Below are positions 9,268 through 44,368 of a stretch of DNA of 45,884 nt, piece after piece; position 1 is the stretch's first letter; the number at the start of each line of letters is the position of its first letter. A program made the position numbers and the translations under genes. The notes beneath the pieces are model-generated. The model searched no databases, had not been told where the DNA came from, and saw nothing but the letters and a program-made list of their open reading frames with translations. Location of the stretch: positions 1 to 45,884 of the forward strand of contig JAPEUI010000125.1 of assembly GCA_026025075.1 (NCBI GenBank), written 5' to 3'. Source of the stretch: Vezdaea acicularis (taxonomy: Eukaryota).

Positions 9268-12200
9268 ATGGCTGACAAGCGGGTCAATGACCATTCCTAT
9301 GGTCAGGTCGGACGCGCAATATATGACCAGAAAGCTAAGAAATGGGGTTTTGGGCGTCAAGCAAGCATCAGTATGTACTATCTTGATCACCAAATCTATT
9401 CATACTTACGGCCTCAGTCGACAAGCTTCGTCAAACTGGGAAGATCCGAACGGTTATTCCTCCTTCATCGAAACAACCCTTTGGCGACACGAACAGGCCA
9501 AGCGGCTCCTTCAGCTCTAGAATTTTTAGCCTTTCACTCGAACATCCAGAAATAGCAGCTGCGATTCCTCTGCTCCCATTTGCAGCATATACTTCTCAGG
9601 TGGCGGCGTCCATTGCATGGCAACATGACCCAGCTGTGTCGACACTCTTCGCTCTCGGCCGCGCTACTGACCTTGATAACCAACGCTCTGGAGCTAGAAC
9701 CATTCTCATTGCTGCAATGGTGGGTGGTGATACAAGGGAGGAAGTCAGACTGATCAAAATCTTCAAAGAACCCAAGGCTTGGACCCATCAATTCCCCAGA
9801 ACAACTCTCGATGTTTTGAGCGTCGGAGGTGAAGAGGGGTGGTGGGTAGGGGGAGGAGGTTCAATCTGGCAAATATGTTTTTCAGAGCACAATAGGGATG
9901 TTGGGCCTTGGATGGCGGTGCGTCAATCTAGGTCTACCACGATATTTCGACCACTCTATAAACGGATCCCTGTTATATCTACCGGATCCTTACACAGGAA
10001 GCACCCGCCCTCACGAATGAGTCCTAACCCTATCGTCACTATCTCTAGTTCTATGACTGGCGGAAGCTCACATGCAGACGTAACCTTCAATCCATGGTAC
10101 GCTCGTCAAGTTGCTGTGATTGACAATAATGGCCGATGGTCAATATGGGATATAGAAGGACAAGAGCAGAAGAGGTGTATCTGGAGGCTAAATGCCGGAC
10201 CAGAGGGTCAAATTTACGATGAATGGGTTGCAGAATCGTGGGAGTCATGCCAAGCGGACGGCTGGGGAAGGATCTGTTGGGCTGGTGATATACACACATT
10301 GACTGTATTCAATCGACGTCAAATGGCTATCTTCGACATTCGCTCTGTACCATCCAAACCCCTGTCCTTTCCAAATCTTAGGCTTGGACGCAGCTCAAGC
10401 TGGATCCTAGATGTAAAAAGGAGTCCCACAGAGGATGGGCACTTATTCATTGTCACCTCCTCAGAAGTGATCTGGATGGCCGTCCAGAATGTCACATCGC
10501 TCGATGACTTTAGTGAGCCAACATGGCGCGCGAGGATTCTTTCCTCTTGGAGACATTTTCGGGCGGCTGAAGATACGAGCTTGCAAATAGAAGTAATGGC
10601 ACATCACGCGGGTGGGCCTCAATAGTCGCAATCATTCTATCTAGACTAACAACGCAATAGGGGGTGTACTCACTATCCTTTATTCAAAATTTAGTGGTTT
10701 GGCGACCGTATTTCATTTTTATAATGAGCTTAATAAGAAAAGGCTACCTTATTCAACATCCGATCCATACGAGTTTCCCATAATGAAAGCTGAAAGCTCA
10801 GATCAAGCCAAAGAGGATGCTCATAAGCATCCCCAGAATATCTTAAGCTTATCACTCAGGCCGCTGCCTTACCGACATATGATGAATGAGATCCCGGTTG
10901 ACGTAGGTGCGAATTACAAAGACGAAGGGGTAAAATTTTATCAGTTCTTCGTATTCGACAGTGCCCTCGGACTCCAAGATATGCTCTTCGCACAGGCTAA
11001 GACAAGAGCGGTAATCGAGCCAGTTTATAAAGGGGCTAAGCATCCTAGACAGAGGCTGCAAAAGTCTGCAGCATGGGCTGGAGGTACCACGTTCATAGTG
11101 AACGAAGCTCTTGACTGGTCGGAAAATGGGCTCGATGAAGAGACGCCAGCGTATCCTCTACATGGATCTCAAGCTAAGAAAGCTGGAGCCAAGTCTCGGA
11201 AGGATCTACGGGGCACCGACAACCAATGGCTATATAAGGCCGCCTATGGCATTGAAGCTACTGTTATGGCTACTCGAGCGAATTCACCGAGTAGCAGCTC
11301 CAAGGATCAAGAAGACTTTCTGTTGAACCTTGGAGAGAAGCTTAGGTTGAAGATAGTGAACGGATACCATCCATTCGATACATTGTAAGTGGACCTGTAA
11401 ATATGTCAGTTGAATACGCACTAATTTTTAGGCTCGAGATCTGTACACCTGATTTGGCTCTCACGGATCTTGAAGACATGTCTAATGTTTTGCAAGAAAT
11501 CCTGACGTCTATAGACGGCGAGCAGGACTTGAACCCTCTTGTCAAGTGCAGAGCGAAGGTATTGGCTCCACAGCAACTATTTGGACAGCGCGAGAGTGAA
11601 AAGACCTCAAACTACAAAAGATTGTCCCTCTCCGATATCTACGAGTATCTCATTCAATCTTGGATCAGTGTTCTACCCCAAGAGCTTCCAGGTAGAGCTC
11701 GTCTTGCAAAGGAAAAGGTTGTACGTGCAGTAGCGATGGAATTGACGCTAGCAGCCGTCGGAATTGGTCTGGAGGATATCATCCCCTCGATGCTAGGCGC
11801 AGAAGGCCAAGAAGAAGCTAGTATCACTGAGGCTTCTTCAAGAGAGCCCCCATGGCTTTCTCAGAGTCCCACGGACAGACCAGAAAGGGGTTCTCAAGCA
11901 TCCACGCGCCCACCTTCCCTAATTGGCGAATCTAGGGCCACATCCCAGGCCCCGCGCACGACTAGCACACTCTCAGATCCCGTCGGCCCTCTCAGCCCCA
12001 CTGCCTCGGCATCCACAACCTTCTTCCAGCCCCAAGAGGATCCCGCTGTTGCCCGCCTGCGCGCTTACACAACTCTCAACTCGCAGCCACAACTCCCTCC
12101 AAGCATGACAAGAGTCCTCGCTCACTGGAGCCTCAACAAGGACCCGGATTCATATTCATGGGAAGCAACACGCCGCGCTCGCTCCGACCTCTCTGGCGAT

Positions 12201-12521
12201 ACCGACGCCGACGACACAGAGACCCAGACACCAGAGACAAGCGAGAGCGCCACCAAGCGTGCACGAATCCGGCGGCGGCTGGAACGGAGGCTGGCGCAGC
12301 AGAGAAAAGAGGCGGCGGCTCGACCGGTGCCGGAGAGGATATGGGGAAGTCAACCCGATGCGAGAGCGGCCCAGTGGTTGGCGGATAGTTCCCAAATGGG
12401 AGAGGAGCTAGAGGGGATAGGGAGAGGAATGGGGTTGCCAATGAGTCAGGTTGAAAGAGGGCCGTTTGTAGGGAGGAACGAGGAGCGGATAAGGCAGAAA
12501 AGGAGGCGACAAGGTTTCTAG
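9268..12521 (+). CDS. RRN6: RNA polymerase I core factor subunit Rrn6 homolog
   Basis: Introns 9371-9417, 10612-10660 and 11385-11431 join four ORF pieces in frame. N-terminal YGQVGRAIY..W.F.R; beta-propeller region (SHADVTFNPW..AVID..GRWSIWDI; SWRHFR..EDTSL); C-terminal LAHW...DP..YSWE and MSQVERGPF..KRRRQGF, as in filamentous-fungal Rrn6. Divergent from SPC25. Confidence 0.75.
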
Positions 12522-13270
12522 AGGCGATGACGTGCGGGCACCGCACATTTAACATACACCCATATAGTCGGGCAGACATGTAATAGAATGGATTGTTCTG
12601 AGTTTTACTAGTTGCAGCACAAATACTGACTGGACAAAGTCGGTGCTGCCCTAGATACGTAACCACAACCGCGGAAAATGAAGAGACAAGGAGTTGAAAG
12701 GCGGTGAAGTATTGACGCCGCACCTCCAATGGAGATACTTATAACCTGTTAGACCTCCAATAAGAAGAATAGCTCCGAAGCCCATCCATTCTAGCGCAAA
12801 GATAGACTAGACAAAGCCGCCGCTGCTCTAGACCCATAGTTACAATCGCCAAAAAGGAGGAGACAGGGGTTTTAACGGTAGTGAAGTTCGGAATCCGCAC
12901 TTTCCATGTGAATACATGTAACCTAATAGACCTCTTATGAAATGAATTGCTGTAGAGTTCACCCGTTGCAGCATAAAGATGGACTTGACAAAGCTAGTGT
13001 TGCCCTAGACGCATAACTGGAATCGCGAAAGCGGAAAACCACAAGATATAATGTCTTTATACCAATCTGAAACGCGATTGCGCAGAAGGTACATGTAATT
13101 TAGTAGATCTTTAAAAAGATGAATAACTCTGAACTTCTTTCGTTGCAGCACAAAGATGGAATAGACAAAGGGGTTGCAGCTCTAGACGCATAAATAGGAC
13201 CGCGAAGCTCAAAATCATAGGATATGATGATGTCTTTATGCCAAACTGCAAAACGATCGCGCAGAAGCTA
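12495..13270. repeat. Diverged tandem array of an exactly 177-bp unit derived from the RRN6 3' end (~4.4 units)
   Basis: Homologous blocks (C.CAAAGAT.GA.T.GACAAAG....GC.CTAGA) start at 12618, 12795, 12972 and 13149. The RRN6 terminal codons at 12495 align with 12672 and 12849. Confidence 0.85.
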
Positions 13271-14555
13271 CAGATCGCCCAAAGAAAGAGACAATGACTT
13301 ACACATACAGTAAAGTCCACAAGTCCTCAGAGGGAAAAGGGGGTAGCTCAAACTCGCAGCGTAGTCCATAGGTCGGCTTCACAGCCAAGCCTGCAACACC
13401 GAAACCACGTGCTTCTGAATGTGTTCGATATATTGCAAAATATTCCGTCATGATCCCGCTGCGTCTAGTCAGCGTGGTGTATAGCGATGCTGCACGACTT
13501 TAAATTGCGGCATCCCGCGTTCGATTCGTCGTTCGCGCAAGCCTTTCGTTCACGCAACTGCAAATACGGGTTCGCCCGGGGTGAAATCGCTGTTGACAGG
13601 CAGCGCTGAATCAGCACAACTGCTTGCGTTGGGTTGGATTCTGTCTCCTTCCCAAATTCATGCCTCAAGTGGGGGTTTATACGTTGGCTTCCCGTGACTT
13701 CCAGCCTGCTTATGGGCCTCCTCAGCACCAGAGAGGTTCGTATACGGGCTGGGAAGATACGTGCGTTTTTGTAAATTGTTTGAATTGAATATTATTTTTT
13801 GGCGTAGCTTTCAATACCTTTGATTGCAAGAGCTCAAGGATTCGCGGAACTTTAGACTGTTGATAAGGCACCGATGATGCCAAAACTCAAGACTCTTTGA
13901 GACGGCGAGCTCAATACGTTTGAGCGAGTACAAGTCAATATCTAGGACGAGGATCTTGCAGCATTTGGCGCCGATCAGGGGAGTCGCAAAATCGCAGACC
14001 AAAGGAGGAGTGAGTGAGTGGGAGCCTGGAGGGGGCTGCGGACGGCGTTCATCATTGGCCCGATGGCCGAAGTGATTGGTTATATGTGCTTTAAAGTGTC
14101 TTCAAATATGAATGTTCCATAAGAGTCTTTGCGATTGGGAAGGGTTATCTTGGAGCTGTGGCCTTAACGTTTCGACGGACCTTCATGTTAGCTATTGATT
14201 ATAACAGAGCGGTGATATGCAACCACTCCTTAGACTTAAATGAAACAAAAGACTCTACATGTTGTAGGCCTGCCTTTCTTCAAGGTCATGTCTGTGATTG
14301 ACCACCGTAGGCTTGCGCTACGTTAGGGTAAGAGAATAGAGTTCACGATCGGACCCTGTGCAAGACCCTCTCAAGGGTTGCACCGCACTCAAGAAAGATC
14401 TATTCTTGACTATAGTAGAGAATTGTTCTCGCAGTGATTCAAAGTGAAATACAGACACCATGCGTGCCGTGCATCTTGTGGTCCGGTGCTATTTCCATTT
14501 GGGCAAGACGCATGTCGGCTGGCCATTTGTCTATGGACATCGCGAAAAACGACTA

Positions 14556-14616
14556 CAGTGGGGGGGGCAATAGTCTGAATACACCTTGGCCTCGCTCAGA
14601 CTTCTGGCCCCCCCTG
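14556..14616. mobile_element. Miniature impala/mimp-like Tc1-mariner MITE, copy 1 (61 bp)
   Basis: TA|CAGTGGGGGGGGCAATAGTCTGAATACACCTTGGCCTCGCTCAGACTTCTGGCCCCCCCTG|TA: TA target duplication and an impala-type CAGTGGG..GCAA terminus. Confidence 0.8.
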
Positions 14617-15021
14617 TAACAAAGCCGCCGACCTCCTGAGCTAGGATCGCAACTCAGATGTCTCTTTTGTGTTTGTTCTTAGGATCTAAGAACAAAGCCT
14701 ATAGTTCTAAGAGAACTAGTCACCCTAAGATCTTTTAGAAGCCTCCACTCCACCTGGAAGCATGTCACGCACTAAAAAGGGTGCCAAAAGGCCTCCAGTG
14801 CCAGTACTAGTAAGAAAAGCAGCCATTAATTTAAAAAAAAGGGTATGTTGTAACGTTAGATACATCTCATAGATCTTCTAACGTTCCTCACTAGCCTCTG
14901 CTGCGAAGGACGTTATTTACTGAAATGTGTTACACATATAATTCAGTAGATTTCAATCATTATATGTGAACAAAAAAATATTCGAAGGTTGGCTTCTTTC
15001 TTTGCCTTCTCATCGTTCATA

Positions 15022-15101
15022 TAGTGGGGGCCAGAAGTCTGAATACACCTTGGCGCGTAAAACGAGGCCAAGGTGTATTCAGACTTTTGCACCCCCCACT
15101 G
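15022..15101. mobile_element. Miniature impala/mimp-like MITE, copy 2 (80 bp, hairpin), inverted relative to copy 1
   Basis: TA|TAGTGGGGGCCAGAAGTCTGAATACACCTTGGC...GAGGCCAAGGTGTATTCAGACTTTTGCACCCCCCACTG|TA. Its right 39 bp are the reverse complement of 14556-14594 with 2 mismatches. Confidence 0.85.
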
Positions 15102-15325
15102 TACCGTGCTTTGTCAAAGAAAATCAGAGCAAGCAAGGAAATCTTGTGAAGCATCGCTGTCGCGATGCTGAATTATATTTGTAATGGTCACAGATATATT
15201 CCAAGGACTCTCGGATAAGGATATGACGTGACTGCACCAAATACTATGAAATATACCAAAGATCCACCGCCGTTCTAGCACCCTAACTCCACCATATCCC
15301 CGATTAAAAATTCAATCACCCTAAG

Positions 15326-17534
15326 TTAATAAGCGAACCCTTCAACCCAGAGCCAGACCCCTTGTGCGCCTGTTCCTTTGTGGATGCCCCTCTCGTCACT
15401 TAGCCTGACCACAGCGCTACGCACATCCTGCGCCATTGCGCGGGGACCACAGACTACAACTGCGGACTCGCCGCGAGCAACTTCGAGTTCGGCTTGAATG
15501 ATTTTGTAGAGGTTTGGGCGGCCTACTGCTAGTGGGACGGAAGGTTTGGCTGAGCTGCAGGTGCAGGTAGAAGGTACATTGTGTTTTGCGTCAGCCAAGA
15601 TTGGAACCATAGTCATGCAGCCGCATGAAGCACAGATCTTGTCACTAGAGTCGAGAGGAGTTGAAGAGGAAGTGGAAGAAATTGAATGCAACGATGTTGG
15701 ACGGAGGGTCTGTACAGTCCGAGTATCTTTCTCTTTCGGCTTCTCATTCTGTGTCTCCGGTAAGCCGGTGTGAGCTAAAGCCTGCTCTTCCAACTCGGTT
15801 TTCTCTACTTTGCCATGTTTGGTCTCCTGCACACCAGATGCATGCGCAAATAGCCTATTCACGCTCGTGACCGAGTCGTCACAGCTGACGCAGACTAAGA
15901 CGTCTAACTCAAGTGGGGTGCCTGTCTCTCGGCGCAGCTCCAAAACGTCAGTCATGGCCTTATCGAGAGCGCTCTCAAACCATCTGAGTTGCTCGCAGCT
16001 TTTTACGGCCCATACGAAACGTATACGTCTGGTTACAACACCCTGTGCTATTCTCTCTCTCCACCCCAGTATGATATCGCGCAGTAGCGGAACAGTGAAT
16101 GTGGCACCTATGCCCCCAGCGACGAGCGTCACGGTGTCGAACTGCTTCAAGGGTCGCATGCGCCCATAGGGTCCTTCAATACCAACAGCAGTTGTCGAAG
16201 GGTGGAACCTAAGGTTGATTGTGGTAGATGGAAGGCTGTGCGATTTCGTGGCATGGCGGAAGAAAGAACGGGTTCCACCTCGTTCAGAGCGAGCTAGGAT
16301 TTCGAGTTTGTTGTCGGAGGGCAGAGAGTTGATAGTGAAGGGATGAGATTGAAGAGGAACAAGGCTATGACACGAGAGGAAGATGTGCTGGCCTGGAGAC
16401 CAACTAATTGGTGGATTTGGGATCGTAATGCGGGTGACATCGCAGGGTAGGGGCGTGAATGTCGCGCGGCATGTCCACAGGCTAGCGTTTTTGGTTTCGG
16501 AGTCTCTCTGCTTTCTTAGACGTGGATGAAAGATGCTCAAATTAGTATAGATGACGAATGCGGCCCGGACAACTCGGTCTAAGAAAAAGAGCCCAACAGG
16601 TATCCAGATCCATACATGTACCTCTGCCGGCGTATGAATATAGACGACGCCTATGAAAGCGGCAAACGAGATTAGATGCTGTAGAACAAAGATCTCATAG
16701 CTCCAACTCCGAATGGGCATCACAGAGCTGATGACAATCCACAGAAGTATGCTCCAGGCAGCAATGCCTTTCTGCGTGATGGGGTCTGTCTTTACTTTCT
16801 CGGAAATGTAATCGTAGCGCGCCCAGTCGCGGAACCAGTAACCCATATGGAGTGTAGACGTGAAGAGGAGGGCTCTCGCAGCCCACCGGTGCATCCAGTT
16901 CAGACGCTCGTAACTGGTTCCGGTGAGAAAACCGATGACATTGTTCTTACTCGCAAGCAAGAAGATAAGGGGCAACTGGGCCATGCTGATGAAGCCTGTG
17001 CGGTATCCGACGTCTTCCCATTCCCACACATCACTAAGATCGAATGCGAAAAGGCAGAACACCGTCAGAGCGGCGAAATATGCTAGGACGATGAATACAT
17101 GGCCAACTGGTAGGCGACCGAAGAGGTATCTGTTGATTCGATAGTTTCCAGAAAGGGGCATGTATGCTACCTCCCGAGTAACAGCTACGAAAGTCGCCCA
17201 TGTATTTGATAGTATTGATCCGGGCTTTGCTGGGGACGGGTGATTCCTCTTTGATGCTGATTTTCTAGAGTATTATGTTAATGATCCATCTTTGTGTGCG
17301 TTGGATACGTTAAACTTGCCTCTGTCGAGCGATAAGCTTATTCAATATGTTCACCGCCGTTGCGAACGCAGTCAACGCACCGAGTATCGCCCAGAAAACT
17401 CGCTGGAGATGGAACAAATCTGGGAGAGCCGGACCTCCAAATGGAGAGCTTGAAGAAGAGCTGGCTCCATAGCTCATGCCTCCCATCCCCATTCCCATCC
17501 CGTCGGAGCCACCCATATTCATGTGATCATGCAT
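15326..17534 (-). CDS. Ferric/cupric reductase (FRE-family metalloreductase) with Met/His-rich N-terminus
   Basis: Exon 1 (17534-17320, MHDHMNMGGSDGMGMGMGGM...) is joined in frame through a GC-AG intron (17319-17265) to the 611-aa ORF. Heme-ligand His motifs (LNWMHRW, TLHMG, LQHL, YIH), FAD-binding HPFT, EGPYG, NADPH-binding AGGIGATF and VCGP, C-terminal EGFAY. Confidence 0.92.
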
Positions 17535-41545: not shown

Positions 41546-42297
41546 GATGCCATAGCAAATATAGTTGGGGTGTTAAAGTATTCTTTCCTAGGTATAAACT
41601 CTGCATAAAGGCGAAAAGTCATAATGAAGGCGTTCGGACCTTTCTAAACGCTCGAGCATAAAGTCGGGCCGCTCCATCTAAAGTTCCATAGACCCGGCTC
41701 TTACCGTGCAGGCCAGCATCCCGAAGAATGGTTGCTCTTCCCGTTCACCAATGATATCCCTCGCTCCTGAGCATGATCCCTACTGGAACCATGCAACGCG
41801 AATCCTTCGCTACCGTTATACAGATTCGATAAATCCGCAAGCCGTCCAACGCCGTCCATCACTGGAATTCTGGTTATCATAAGCTCTACCACCGAGCTTC
41901 AAGGTTAGATCCAAGCAAGGATTTTCAACAGACCGCTTAGAACTGCTTGTCTCTGACGTCCAGCCCTGAGCTCGTGACCTGTGGCTTGACGCGATATTGG
42001 GAGTTCTCTTCATACTTTTACCCGTATGGTCAGAATATCGGACCAATCCCTCGTGTATGCAAGCATACCATAGAATCAAATATCACCGTCTGCTTGTTCT
42101 GGGTTCTTTATATTTCCTATTCAGGCAAGAGAAATGAAACTTGAGGCGTTCTCTAATCCAGCGTGGCTCGGGTATACCCCGCTGTTGGGGCCATATATAG
42201 TATTATATATGTCCTAGGCAACGCTCCTTGTCTCCTGCTTGCGCGCTGGTGCTATTTGCTTTTAGTTCCGCAACCCAATCATCGTTCATTCTTTTCC

Positions 42298-44368
42298 ATG
42301 ATGAAAAGCTCGTCCCTTTCGCGAACCCTCACCATGGGAATCGCCTTGGTGGTAGCAGGAGCTCACGCTCATTCCCCACGATGGCCGGCCGATTACTGCT
42401 ATAATGACAACGTCTTACGAGAACTTGAGAACCCGAAACATAGCGCTTCGGCATTCTGTAGTAGTTTCCTAGCTACTACATCCGTTCTTCTGCCCACATA
42501 TCTGACCCAGTACTCTACAACAACTGAGCGGGTAAGCTCTGCTTGCAGCTGTTTCTTCAAGACGACAGCGACAAATCCAACGTCGACTACCTCGATATCT
42601 TCAACTTCGGGTACATCACCTTCGAAGTCGAGCTCAACGACTCCTGGAAGTCCTACGTGTACTGGAGGAGCAACCGTCACGTATGTCTGATACAATCTCA
42701 ATTTATAGCAAGCAGTTAATCCCACTTCAGGGTCACGGATGCCACTACAGCAACAATTACGTGAGTGCACCTTTGATGGGAAACAGAGTATAGGGGCTAA
42801 AGTGTCATAGGCAGACAAATACTGTCTCTTCGTGCACATTGTCGTCGTGCACTGCAAGTGCTACAGAAGGGACTGTCACGTACGTTTCATAAGACATGTA
42901 ATCCATGGTCGAGCTAAATCTCGCACAGAGTGACAAACACGGTCTCTTCATGTACTGCAACAACAGCAGGCACTACCGTCACGTAAGCCGTGCAAATCTT
43001 AGGCTCGACGAAGGAAGCTGATCATGATACAGGATAACGGATACGGTCACCGCGGTATCCACGTAAGTCACGCCACGGTGATGTTAACACATAGCTAAAG
43101 CTTTACAGCGCGACGAGTACTTGCCCGACTGCCAGCACGGTGACGGTCACATACACAGTCACTTCTCCACTGACGTATCTTTCCCCCCCACTCCCCTCTC
43201 CATCCCCACAAGATACCTTGCCCAAGTTAACTTCCAAAGGACAACCGTTACCTTTCCGGTAGTCAGCACGGTGACGGTCCCATACACAGTCACTTCTCCA
43301 CTGACGTATCTTTCCCCCCCACTCCCCTCTCCATCCCCACAAGATACCTTGCCCAAGTTAACTTCCAAAGGACAACCGTTACCTTTCCGGTAGTCAGCAC
43401 GGTGACGGTCCCATACACAGTCACTTCTCCACTGACGTATCTTTCCCCCCCACTCCCCTCTCCATCCCCACAAGATACCTTGCCCAAGTTAACTTCCAAA
43501 GGGCAACCGTTACCTTTCCGGTAGTCAGCACGGTGACGGTCACAGACGTCACCACCATCACGGCCCCCACCAGCACCTGCCCCAGCCCTAGCACCCTGAC
43601 TATAACGTGCGTCCTCTCCAACCTCTTTCAACCCTTCCAGCTAACCTACTCCAGGACCACTAACTCACCAAGCACCTGCATCCCCACCACTGCTTCTGTG
43701 ACGTACCAAAACCCTCCCCCTATCACTCAGCCCCGACCCATCTGACCCTCCCCAGTGTGACCCAGCCCTGCACAAGCAGCACCGCCGCCTGCGTCCTCGG
43801 AAAAGAAGACCTCGTGAACGGCGGTTTCGAAAACGGCCTCGCGCCATGGACCCTCCAAACCGCCCTACCCAACGTCGGCCTAACCAGCGTCACCACCCCC
43901 TCCGACCCGACCGTCGCCCACAGCGGCTCCAGATACCTGTACGCCCCCTTTCTATTCCCTCTCCACATCCCCACCCTTTCCCCAACCCCCAAACTTACCC
44001 CCTCCCGCAGCCGCCTCGACTTCCTGAACGACCAAACCAGCAGCGCAACCGGTTCCAACGCGCTCATCACGCAATCCATCACGCTCCCCAGCGTCAACAG
44101 CTGGTACCGCGTGACCGGGTACGCCAAATCCGACACGCCCATCTCGCGGTTCAGCATCTGCATCGACGTCGACCAGTGCAACACCGCCTTCCTCAATACC
44201 GTCTGGACGCCGATCAGCTTCACCGTGCTGAGTAGCACCGAAGTGGCGGATTTGCAGGTCGTGGTCAGACTGGAGTTTTTTACGGGGAGTGACGCTCCCG
44301 TGGGGACGAGTTATATCGAGGTCGATGATTTGGATGTCCATTGCACAGATAGTGATGTGGGGTTGTGA
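42298..44368 (+). CDS. Secreted Ser/Thr-rich modular protein (12 exons) with N-terminal Cys motif and C-terminal CBM4/9-like beta-sandwich
   Basis: Signal peptide, then CYNDNVLR..ASAFCSSFL..RVSSACSCF, then a Thr-rich stalk built from small exons. Introns start at 42681, 42761, 42880, 42983, 43063, 43175, 43306, 43437, 43607, 43703 and 43939. The C-terminal domain begins LVNGGFENGLAPW and ends IEVDDL. Confidence 0.8.
43133..43541 (+). repeat. Near-identical 131-bp tandem repeat (66-nt exon + 65-nt intron) x3 plus partial
   Basis: Units start at 43133, 43264, 43395 and (partial) 43526, with only isolated substitutions between them. Confidence 0.95.

Follow-up and report, generated by a model that had tools for sequence, protein, structure and literature searches.

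The RRN6 gene and its convergent neighbour

In the window, by which the whole stretch of 45,884 nt analysed here is meant, a gene on the plus strand is matched by the Pfam profile Rrn6_beta-prop at 9600-10625 (E 5e-97) and, on the open reading frame at 11403-12521, by the profiles Rrn6_HB and Rrn6_K-rich, the latter being followed to its final position (131/131) at the last residue. These profile matches confirm the gene adjoining the array described below as RRN6, predicted to encode a subunit of the Pol I core factor. A canonical 47-nt intron occupies 11385-11431, and the last exon (11432..12521, plus strand), assigned by Pfam to the end of the helical bundle and the K-rich C-terminal domain, closes with the stop codon TAG at 12519-12521. 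The 3' coding end (12498-12521) reads AAA AGG AGG CGA CAA GGT TTC TAG, i.e., KRRRQGF*. When this last exon was used as the query of a HMMER search against 1.84 billion representative proteins, 503 relatives were returned at E <= 0.001. Among the 149 listed, GF is the exact C-terminus in 129 and lies within the last four residues in 146, and 123 carry at least three consecutive K/R among their last 12 residues. As judged from these predicted proteins, KRRRQGF* is the native, strongly selected and deeply conserved end of RRN6. The conservation of this basic-GF tail, together with the match of the K-rich profile to its last position, indicates that the array was copied from the gene end and not the reverse. 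The host lineage seems to be poorly sampled, since no RRN6 relative exceeds 44% identity among the cluster representatives, the best non-self relative being only 36-44% identical. A protein word search for longer homologues found none, and of 153 pattern matches of the RRN6 C-terminal protein in metagenome contigs none was confirmed.

The next gene (15326-17161, minus strand) converges on RRN6 and is identified by Pfam as a ferric reductase, for which the nearest Atlas clusters are mostly from Ascomycota. The stop-to-stop interval between the two genes (12521-15326) is unusually long at 2.8 kb, and Pfam matches none of the ORFs in it. It is made up of the array (about 780 bp), a MITE-like element (about 550 bp) and an unexplained stretch at 13273-14553. 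The MITE-like element (14554-15103) is bounded by 41-nt terminal inverted repeats (14554-14594 and 15063-15103) that are 95% complementary, contains nested inverted copies (15026-15054 and 15067-15095) and begins with CAGTGGGG directly behind a flanking TA; the TA flank and the CAGT start presumably resemble Tc1/mariner-type ends. A weak Rfam match to mir-186 at 15031-15093 corresponds to the hairpin of this element.

A tandem array of 177-bp units at the gene end

The first-pass annotation had described four blocks spaced exactly 177 bp apart at the end of RRN6. This spacing is borne out by the self-identity of 12495-13090, which reaches 0.587 at offset 177 and stays within 0.216-0.304 at the remaining 59 of the offsets 150-209, and by a repeat search, in which one family (D1) comprises four copies of a 117-nt core starting at 12559, 12736, 12913 and 13090 (spacing 177/177/177). 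The D1 copies are 65-73% identical to the reference copy, and the pairwise alikeness of the cores is 60-69%. A self-comparison of the whole window at offsets of 12-1199, made in 240-nt windows with an identity of 48% or more, led to two loci only, namely this array (at 177 and at the multiple 354) and an unrelated young array with a 131-bp unit. Tandem Repeats Finder, which by its own description overlooks copies less than about 70% alike, made no call on the 177-bp array because its copies are only 60-69% alike. The units follow each other head to tail at a constant period, as tandem duplicates do, and number 4.4 in total: four full units at 12495-13202 and a partial fifth that reaches to about 13272.

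Unit A (12495..12671, plus strand), delimited by repeat and profile searches, contains the last nine codons of RRN6 (QKRRRQGF*) followed by the proximal 3' flank, and is composed of a spacer of type X (12495-12554, plus strand) and a 117-nt core (12555-12671, plus strand), the latter being recovered by nhmmer at 12556-12676 with an E-value of 1e-33. In unit B (12672..12848, plus strand), the peptide copy is degraded to RKMKRQGVE, its stop is lost, and a TAG stands in frame at 12837-12839. Unit C (12849..13025, plus strand) reads PKRRRQGF* at 12849-12875. Unit D (13026..13202, plus strand) opens with a variant spacer, Z, at 13026-13085, behind which the core continues in exact register, and the partial unit E (13203..13272, plus strand) is made of the Z spacer only and ends the array. 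The first 60 nt or so of the units therefore come in two versions: the X version of A, B and C (65-68% alike) holds the peptide copy, and the Z version of D and E, whose two members are about 80% alike, is 30-37% alike to the X of A-C. The repeat search returned part of Z as a separate family (D2; 13048-13093 versus 13227-13272, 83% identical, spacing 179). Relative to D, unit E is off register by 2-3 nt, with a 3-nt gap in the local alignment (nhmmer E 2e-15).

All four full units also contain codons of the HKDG/LDK..AALD type, in the frame of RRN6 and preceded by YAG, and the resulting HKDG...LDA* blocks are closed at one common offset by TAA, TAA, TAG and TAA, respectively. The earlier description of a YAG, HKDG-like codons and a same-position stop in each unit thus holds for all four, with the qualification that the block of unit A is interrupted by an internal TGA (HKY*LDK).

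A search for the array core with nhmmer found no copy elsewhere in the 45,884-nt window, and a pattern scan of metagenome contigs gave 0 matches. The portions available of the literature on Rrn6 tandem repeats and on fungal satellite and monomer length describe no such array. Just beyond the array, a purine tract at 13277-13300 is X-like (75-80% alike over 20 nt; repeat family D3), with a non-significant nhmmer E-value of 52; as a lead only, this tract might represent microhomology in the flank at which the duplication was seeded.

Divergence of the copies

The Jukes-Cantor distances between cores (0.40-0.58) fit a star tree with residuals of at most 0.02 and branch lengths of 0.32 for A, 0.24 for B, 0.19 for C and 0.20 for D. 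Such star-like distances point to one amplification burst, after which the copies would have decayed independently. The fastest-evolving unit is the gene-proximal copy A, contrary to expectation for a unit acting as a conserved 3'-end signal. Of the 117 core columns, 47 are invariant and 48 have a singleton, the others being two-two (10) or two-one-one (12), and a rate-homogeneous simulation on the star tree yields 48.7, 48.7, 8.2 and 11.0, respectively, with a probability of 0.65 of obtaining at least as many invariant columns as observed. Given this agreement, conserved positions are no more numerous than homogeneous decay predicts. Invariant columns cluster only marginally (permutation p 0.04-0.10), and the apparent conserved blocks (TTGCAGCAYAAAGATGGA..GACAAAG and GCYCTAGAC) appear to be about what chance leaves.

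The first-pass annotation had proposed a substitution test by codon position and had named an even spread as one half of what would refute its proposal. The variable columns did turn out to be evenly spread, which favours neutral divergence: by codon position, units A-C have 30/26/33 (of 59 each; p 0.66), the A-D core has 21/19/24 (of 37 each; p 0.74) and the HKDG block has 6/4/10 (of 16 each; p 0.25). None of these three column sets shows an excess of third-position substitutions between copies.

An apparent age of this kind could also be produced if a young duplication had been altered by RIP, which would at the same time explain substitutions without indels. The TpA/ApT ratio of 0.97 in the array versus 0.75 in the whole window and the predominance of transitions over transversions in the cores (about 2:1) are in keeping with this idea. 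RIP produces C-to-T and G-to-A changes only, whereas the polarised singletons comprise 20 of this type (C>T and G>A), 28 of the opposite type (T>C and A>G) and 23 transversions; moreover, the ratio (CpA+TpG)/(ApC+GpT) is 1.17 in the array and thus not depleted. Given the symmetric substitution spectrum, most of the divergence cannot stem from RIP, and we regard a young, RIP-aged duplication as scarcely credible.

The silent-only peptide copy in unit C

The copy of the RRN6 terminus lying 354 bp downstream (12852-12875) reads AAA AGG AGG AGA CAG GGG TTT TAA and, as codon comparison agrees with the earlier description, differs from the gene at five positions, all of them silent. Taken naively, the probability that five random substitutions in 24 nt are all silent is 2e-4 to 6.5e-4. 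This figure speaks in favour of alternative terminal exons, i.e., of RRN6 mRNA being spliced into downstream units so that the KRRRQGF* of copy C or an HKDG...LDA* block would be translated and kept by purifying selection, an explanation that is also in line with the YAG ahead of each HKDG block, the closing stops in all four units and the preservation of the frame by a period of 59 codons (177 nt).

The picture changes when the differences are assigned to branches. Three-taxon parsimony with unit B identifies three of the five (CGA/AGA, TTC/TTT and TAG/TAA) as states unique to A, that is, to the RRN6 branch, and one (CAA/CAG) as unique to C, and leaves GGT/GGA/GGG ambiguous, with the proviso that, should the root lie on the A branch, some A-unique states could instead reflect changes in an ancestor shared by B and C. 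On the A branch, selection on the conserved RRN6 tail lets only silent changes pass. For the hits on C itself, the probability of being silent is 0.21-0.26 for one and 0.04-0.07 for two. Within KRRRQGF*, no non-silent change falls on the branch leading to C, versus about 3.5 expected (P about 0.03, for an 8-codon window picked after the data had been seen). Immediately before the peptide, the codon CAG has become CCA (Q to P), a non-silent change, and four codons upstream the TAG at 12837-12839 stands in frame, with no ATG; the corresponding peptide of copy B is destroyed, and RRN6 homologues terminate exactly at the end of copy A. The claim that one copy preserves the C-terminal peptide by synonymous changes only is therefore true as an observation and weak as evidence for selection, three of the five differences belonging to the RRN6 branch. 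We read the silent-only copy C as the probable outcome of chance combined with selection on copy A, not of selection on C. A more general caution follows, namely that no selection on the copy is needed to produce a "synonymous-only" pseudo-copy of a conserved peptide, since some of the silent changes seen in the comparison come from the real gene.

Signals for a product or a chromatin role

Stop codons are present in all six frames of the array and are common to several units in five of them. The sole stop-free combination of unit and frame is one minus frame of unit A, which lies inside a 201-codon antisense ORF over the GC-rich end of RRN6. None of ten intergenic and array ORFs reached the Pfam cut-off, and no protein relatives were found for the 84-aa ORF of the array.

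Splicing into the units fares no better. A strict intron pattern applied to 9000-13400 matches only the RRN6 intron at 11385-11431; since it misses the other intron of RRN6 too, it is conservative and leaves room for introns in the array. By eye, units A, C and D have weak candidate donors of the GTAAYY type and unit B is without GT, and no unit has a consensus 5' splice site; the branch motif CTRAY is present only in unit C, far from the YAG, and reading the sequence revealed no GT donor next to the RRN6 K codon. An intron in each unit (GTAAYY ... TTGCAG) was considered and dropped, given that B has no GT and that branch motifs are absent or misplaced. With neither consistent splice signals nor a codon-position bias in its favour, translation of alternative terminal exons is highly improbable. 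More broadly, the proposal of terminal exons or polyadenylation modules under selection finds no support in codon positions, splice signals or site patterns.

The regular unit, of a size suited to an RNA gene, invites the idea of a cluster of small non-coding RNAs, e.g., snoRNA-like, with one per unit, and a perfect C-box-like ATGATGA in the partial unit E and a CTGA in unit D could be taken in its favour. These C/D-box-like motifs occur in single units only and are not common to the array, which gave no Rfam match at E-values up to 10 and has decayed homogeneously. The RNAalifold consensus over 178 columns is negligible on both strands, with 6 pairs and -4.6 kcal/mol on the plus strand and 15 pairs and -5.6 kcal/mol on the minus strand; double changes are seen in 1 of the 6 and 4 of the 15 predicted pairs, respectively, and several pairs are broken. 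With no Rfam match, no conserved fold on either strand and box motifs confined to single units, the snoRNA reading was dropped, and small RNAs of any such kind are very unlikely here.

The length of the unit had also been likened to a nucleosome repeat. This comparison receives no backing from the sequence, the periodicity of AA/TT/TA/AT at 10-11 bp in the array having a band maximum not above that of shuffles (p 0.21).

Origin of the array and the missing indels

The array starts inside the RRN6 C-terminus, its divergence is star-like and homogeneous, and it has no coding, RNA-structure or RIP signature. Judged within one genome, the explanation that we favour, with a probability of roughly 0.7, is an old burst of tandem duplication followed by neutral decay. 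Unequal exchange or replication slippage would have duplicated, in one old burst, a 177-bp segment composed of the last nine codons of RRN6, its stop and about 150 nt of 3' flank. Copy A alone would still serve RRN6, and B to E would be non-coding parts of the long interval between the two convergent genes, diverging independently at a uniform, unconstrained rate, with an age in the region of 0.2-0.3 substitutions per site for each copy. A neutral duplication of the stop codon and 3' flank was among the possibilities raised by the first-pass annotation, and it fits the codon-position, site-pattern, spectrum, coding, RNA and splice tests alike. The loss of peptide and stop in copy B and the in-frame TAG ahead of copy C also count toward it. 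Against neutrality stand the lack of a net indel in A-D, the lack of a non-silent change in copy C and a period that is a multiple of three. On balance, the array is a real but ordinary feature, a decaying duplication of the RRN6 gene end.

The most awkward observation for neutral decay is that of the missing indels. Indels would be expected to accompany substitutions in a neutral relic, but units A-D have zero net indels, with all anchor blocks in register, and the 3-nt gap between D and E is the sole indel. The inferred number of substitutions is about 110 for the cores, to which the X spacers add an estimated 40 or so, about 150 in total. In mutation-accumulation lines of Neurospora crassa, the portion available of one study gives 231 indels versus 1077 single-nucleotide mutations, and places 88 of 96 one-bp indels within homopolymers (PMC10234303). 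Homopolymers are short in the array. With a rate as low as a few indels per 100 substitutions, units A-D should have acquired several, and their absence is unexplained.

The missing indels are the main evidence for a non-coding array constrained in length, in which modules for 3'-end processing or termination, protein binding or chromatin phasing would have kept their spacing and mostly not their sequence. The anchor blocks are in exact register across four units despite pairwise core differences of 31-40%, and the marginal clustering of invariant columns could be read in the same direction. Each unit further contains a TACATGTA-like stretch and an A-rich one (AATAAG / AAGATGAAT), which we take to resemble the efficiency and positioning elements of yeast. 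Nevertheless, the site patterns are rate-homogeneous with no surplus of invariant columns, the 10-11 bp dinucleotide periodicity is lacking, and evolution is fastest in the very unit that adjoins the gene. The next gene is 2.8 kb away, leaving no obvious need for a fail-safe terminator, and no copy of the core was found in the rest of the window or in metagenome contigs. A length-constrained array is thus unlikely. A specific form of it, in which selection on spacing keeps the 177-bp modules, tolerating nearly any sequence and no change of length, and the intact KRRRQGF* of copy C could stem from its serving now and then as a spare end of the gene, is distinctly improbable.

Comparison with known repeat systems

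Neutral decay of a duplicated gene end would place the array closest to decayed tandem duplications or minisatellite-like arrays at the 3' ends of genes, with which it shares the constant period, the start inside the gene end, equidistant copies, uniform decay and the lack of a coding or RNA signal. It differs from them in that each copy has taken about 0.2-0.3 substitutions per site without a net indel, and in the variant spacer of its two 3'-most units. The coding "megasatellites" of yeasts, said to have been described by Thierry et al. in 2008 as long in-frame tandem motifs inside genes, are similar in their long motif, a length that is a multiple of three, diverged copies and freedom from frame-breaking indels; unlike them, the array lies behind the native stop, has stops in every frame and shows no codon-position bias. 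RIP-mutated repeats of ascomycetes likewise are diverged and without indels, in contrast with which the spectrum here is symmetric, with transversions making up a third of the changes. Nucleosome-length satellite DNA, as far as it is treated in the available portion of a review (PMC8122249), is comparable in that a 177-bp unit is near one nucleosome repeat, but the array at RRN6 has only 4.4 copies, is confined to a single genic locus with no other copy in the window and has no 10-bp periodicity.

If the neutral reading is true, the array preserves, on a small scale, about 150 substitution events with no indel among them, and the locus might help a little in calibrating indel rates for a poorly sampled ascomycete lineage. 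Selection for the locked length, on the other hand, would, if real, make the array an unusual example of a constraint on spacing only.

The young array found by the whole-window comparison (43133-43541) contrasts with the old 177-bp array. It consists of 3.1 copies of the 131-bp unit, which are 99% identical and without indels, and it is located between ORFs rich in Ser/Thr/Pro at 42157-42690 and 43664-44368; its unit length is not divisible by three. Short tandem repeats are also found at 382-488 (period 54, 2.0 copies, 81% matches) and 1052-1192 (period 56, 2.5 copies, 87% matches).
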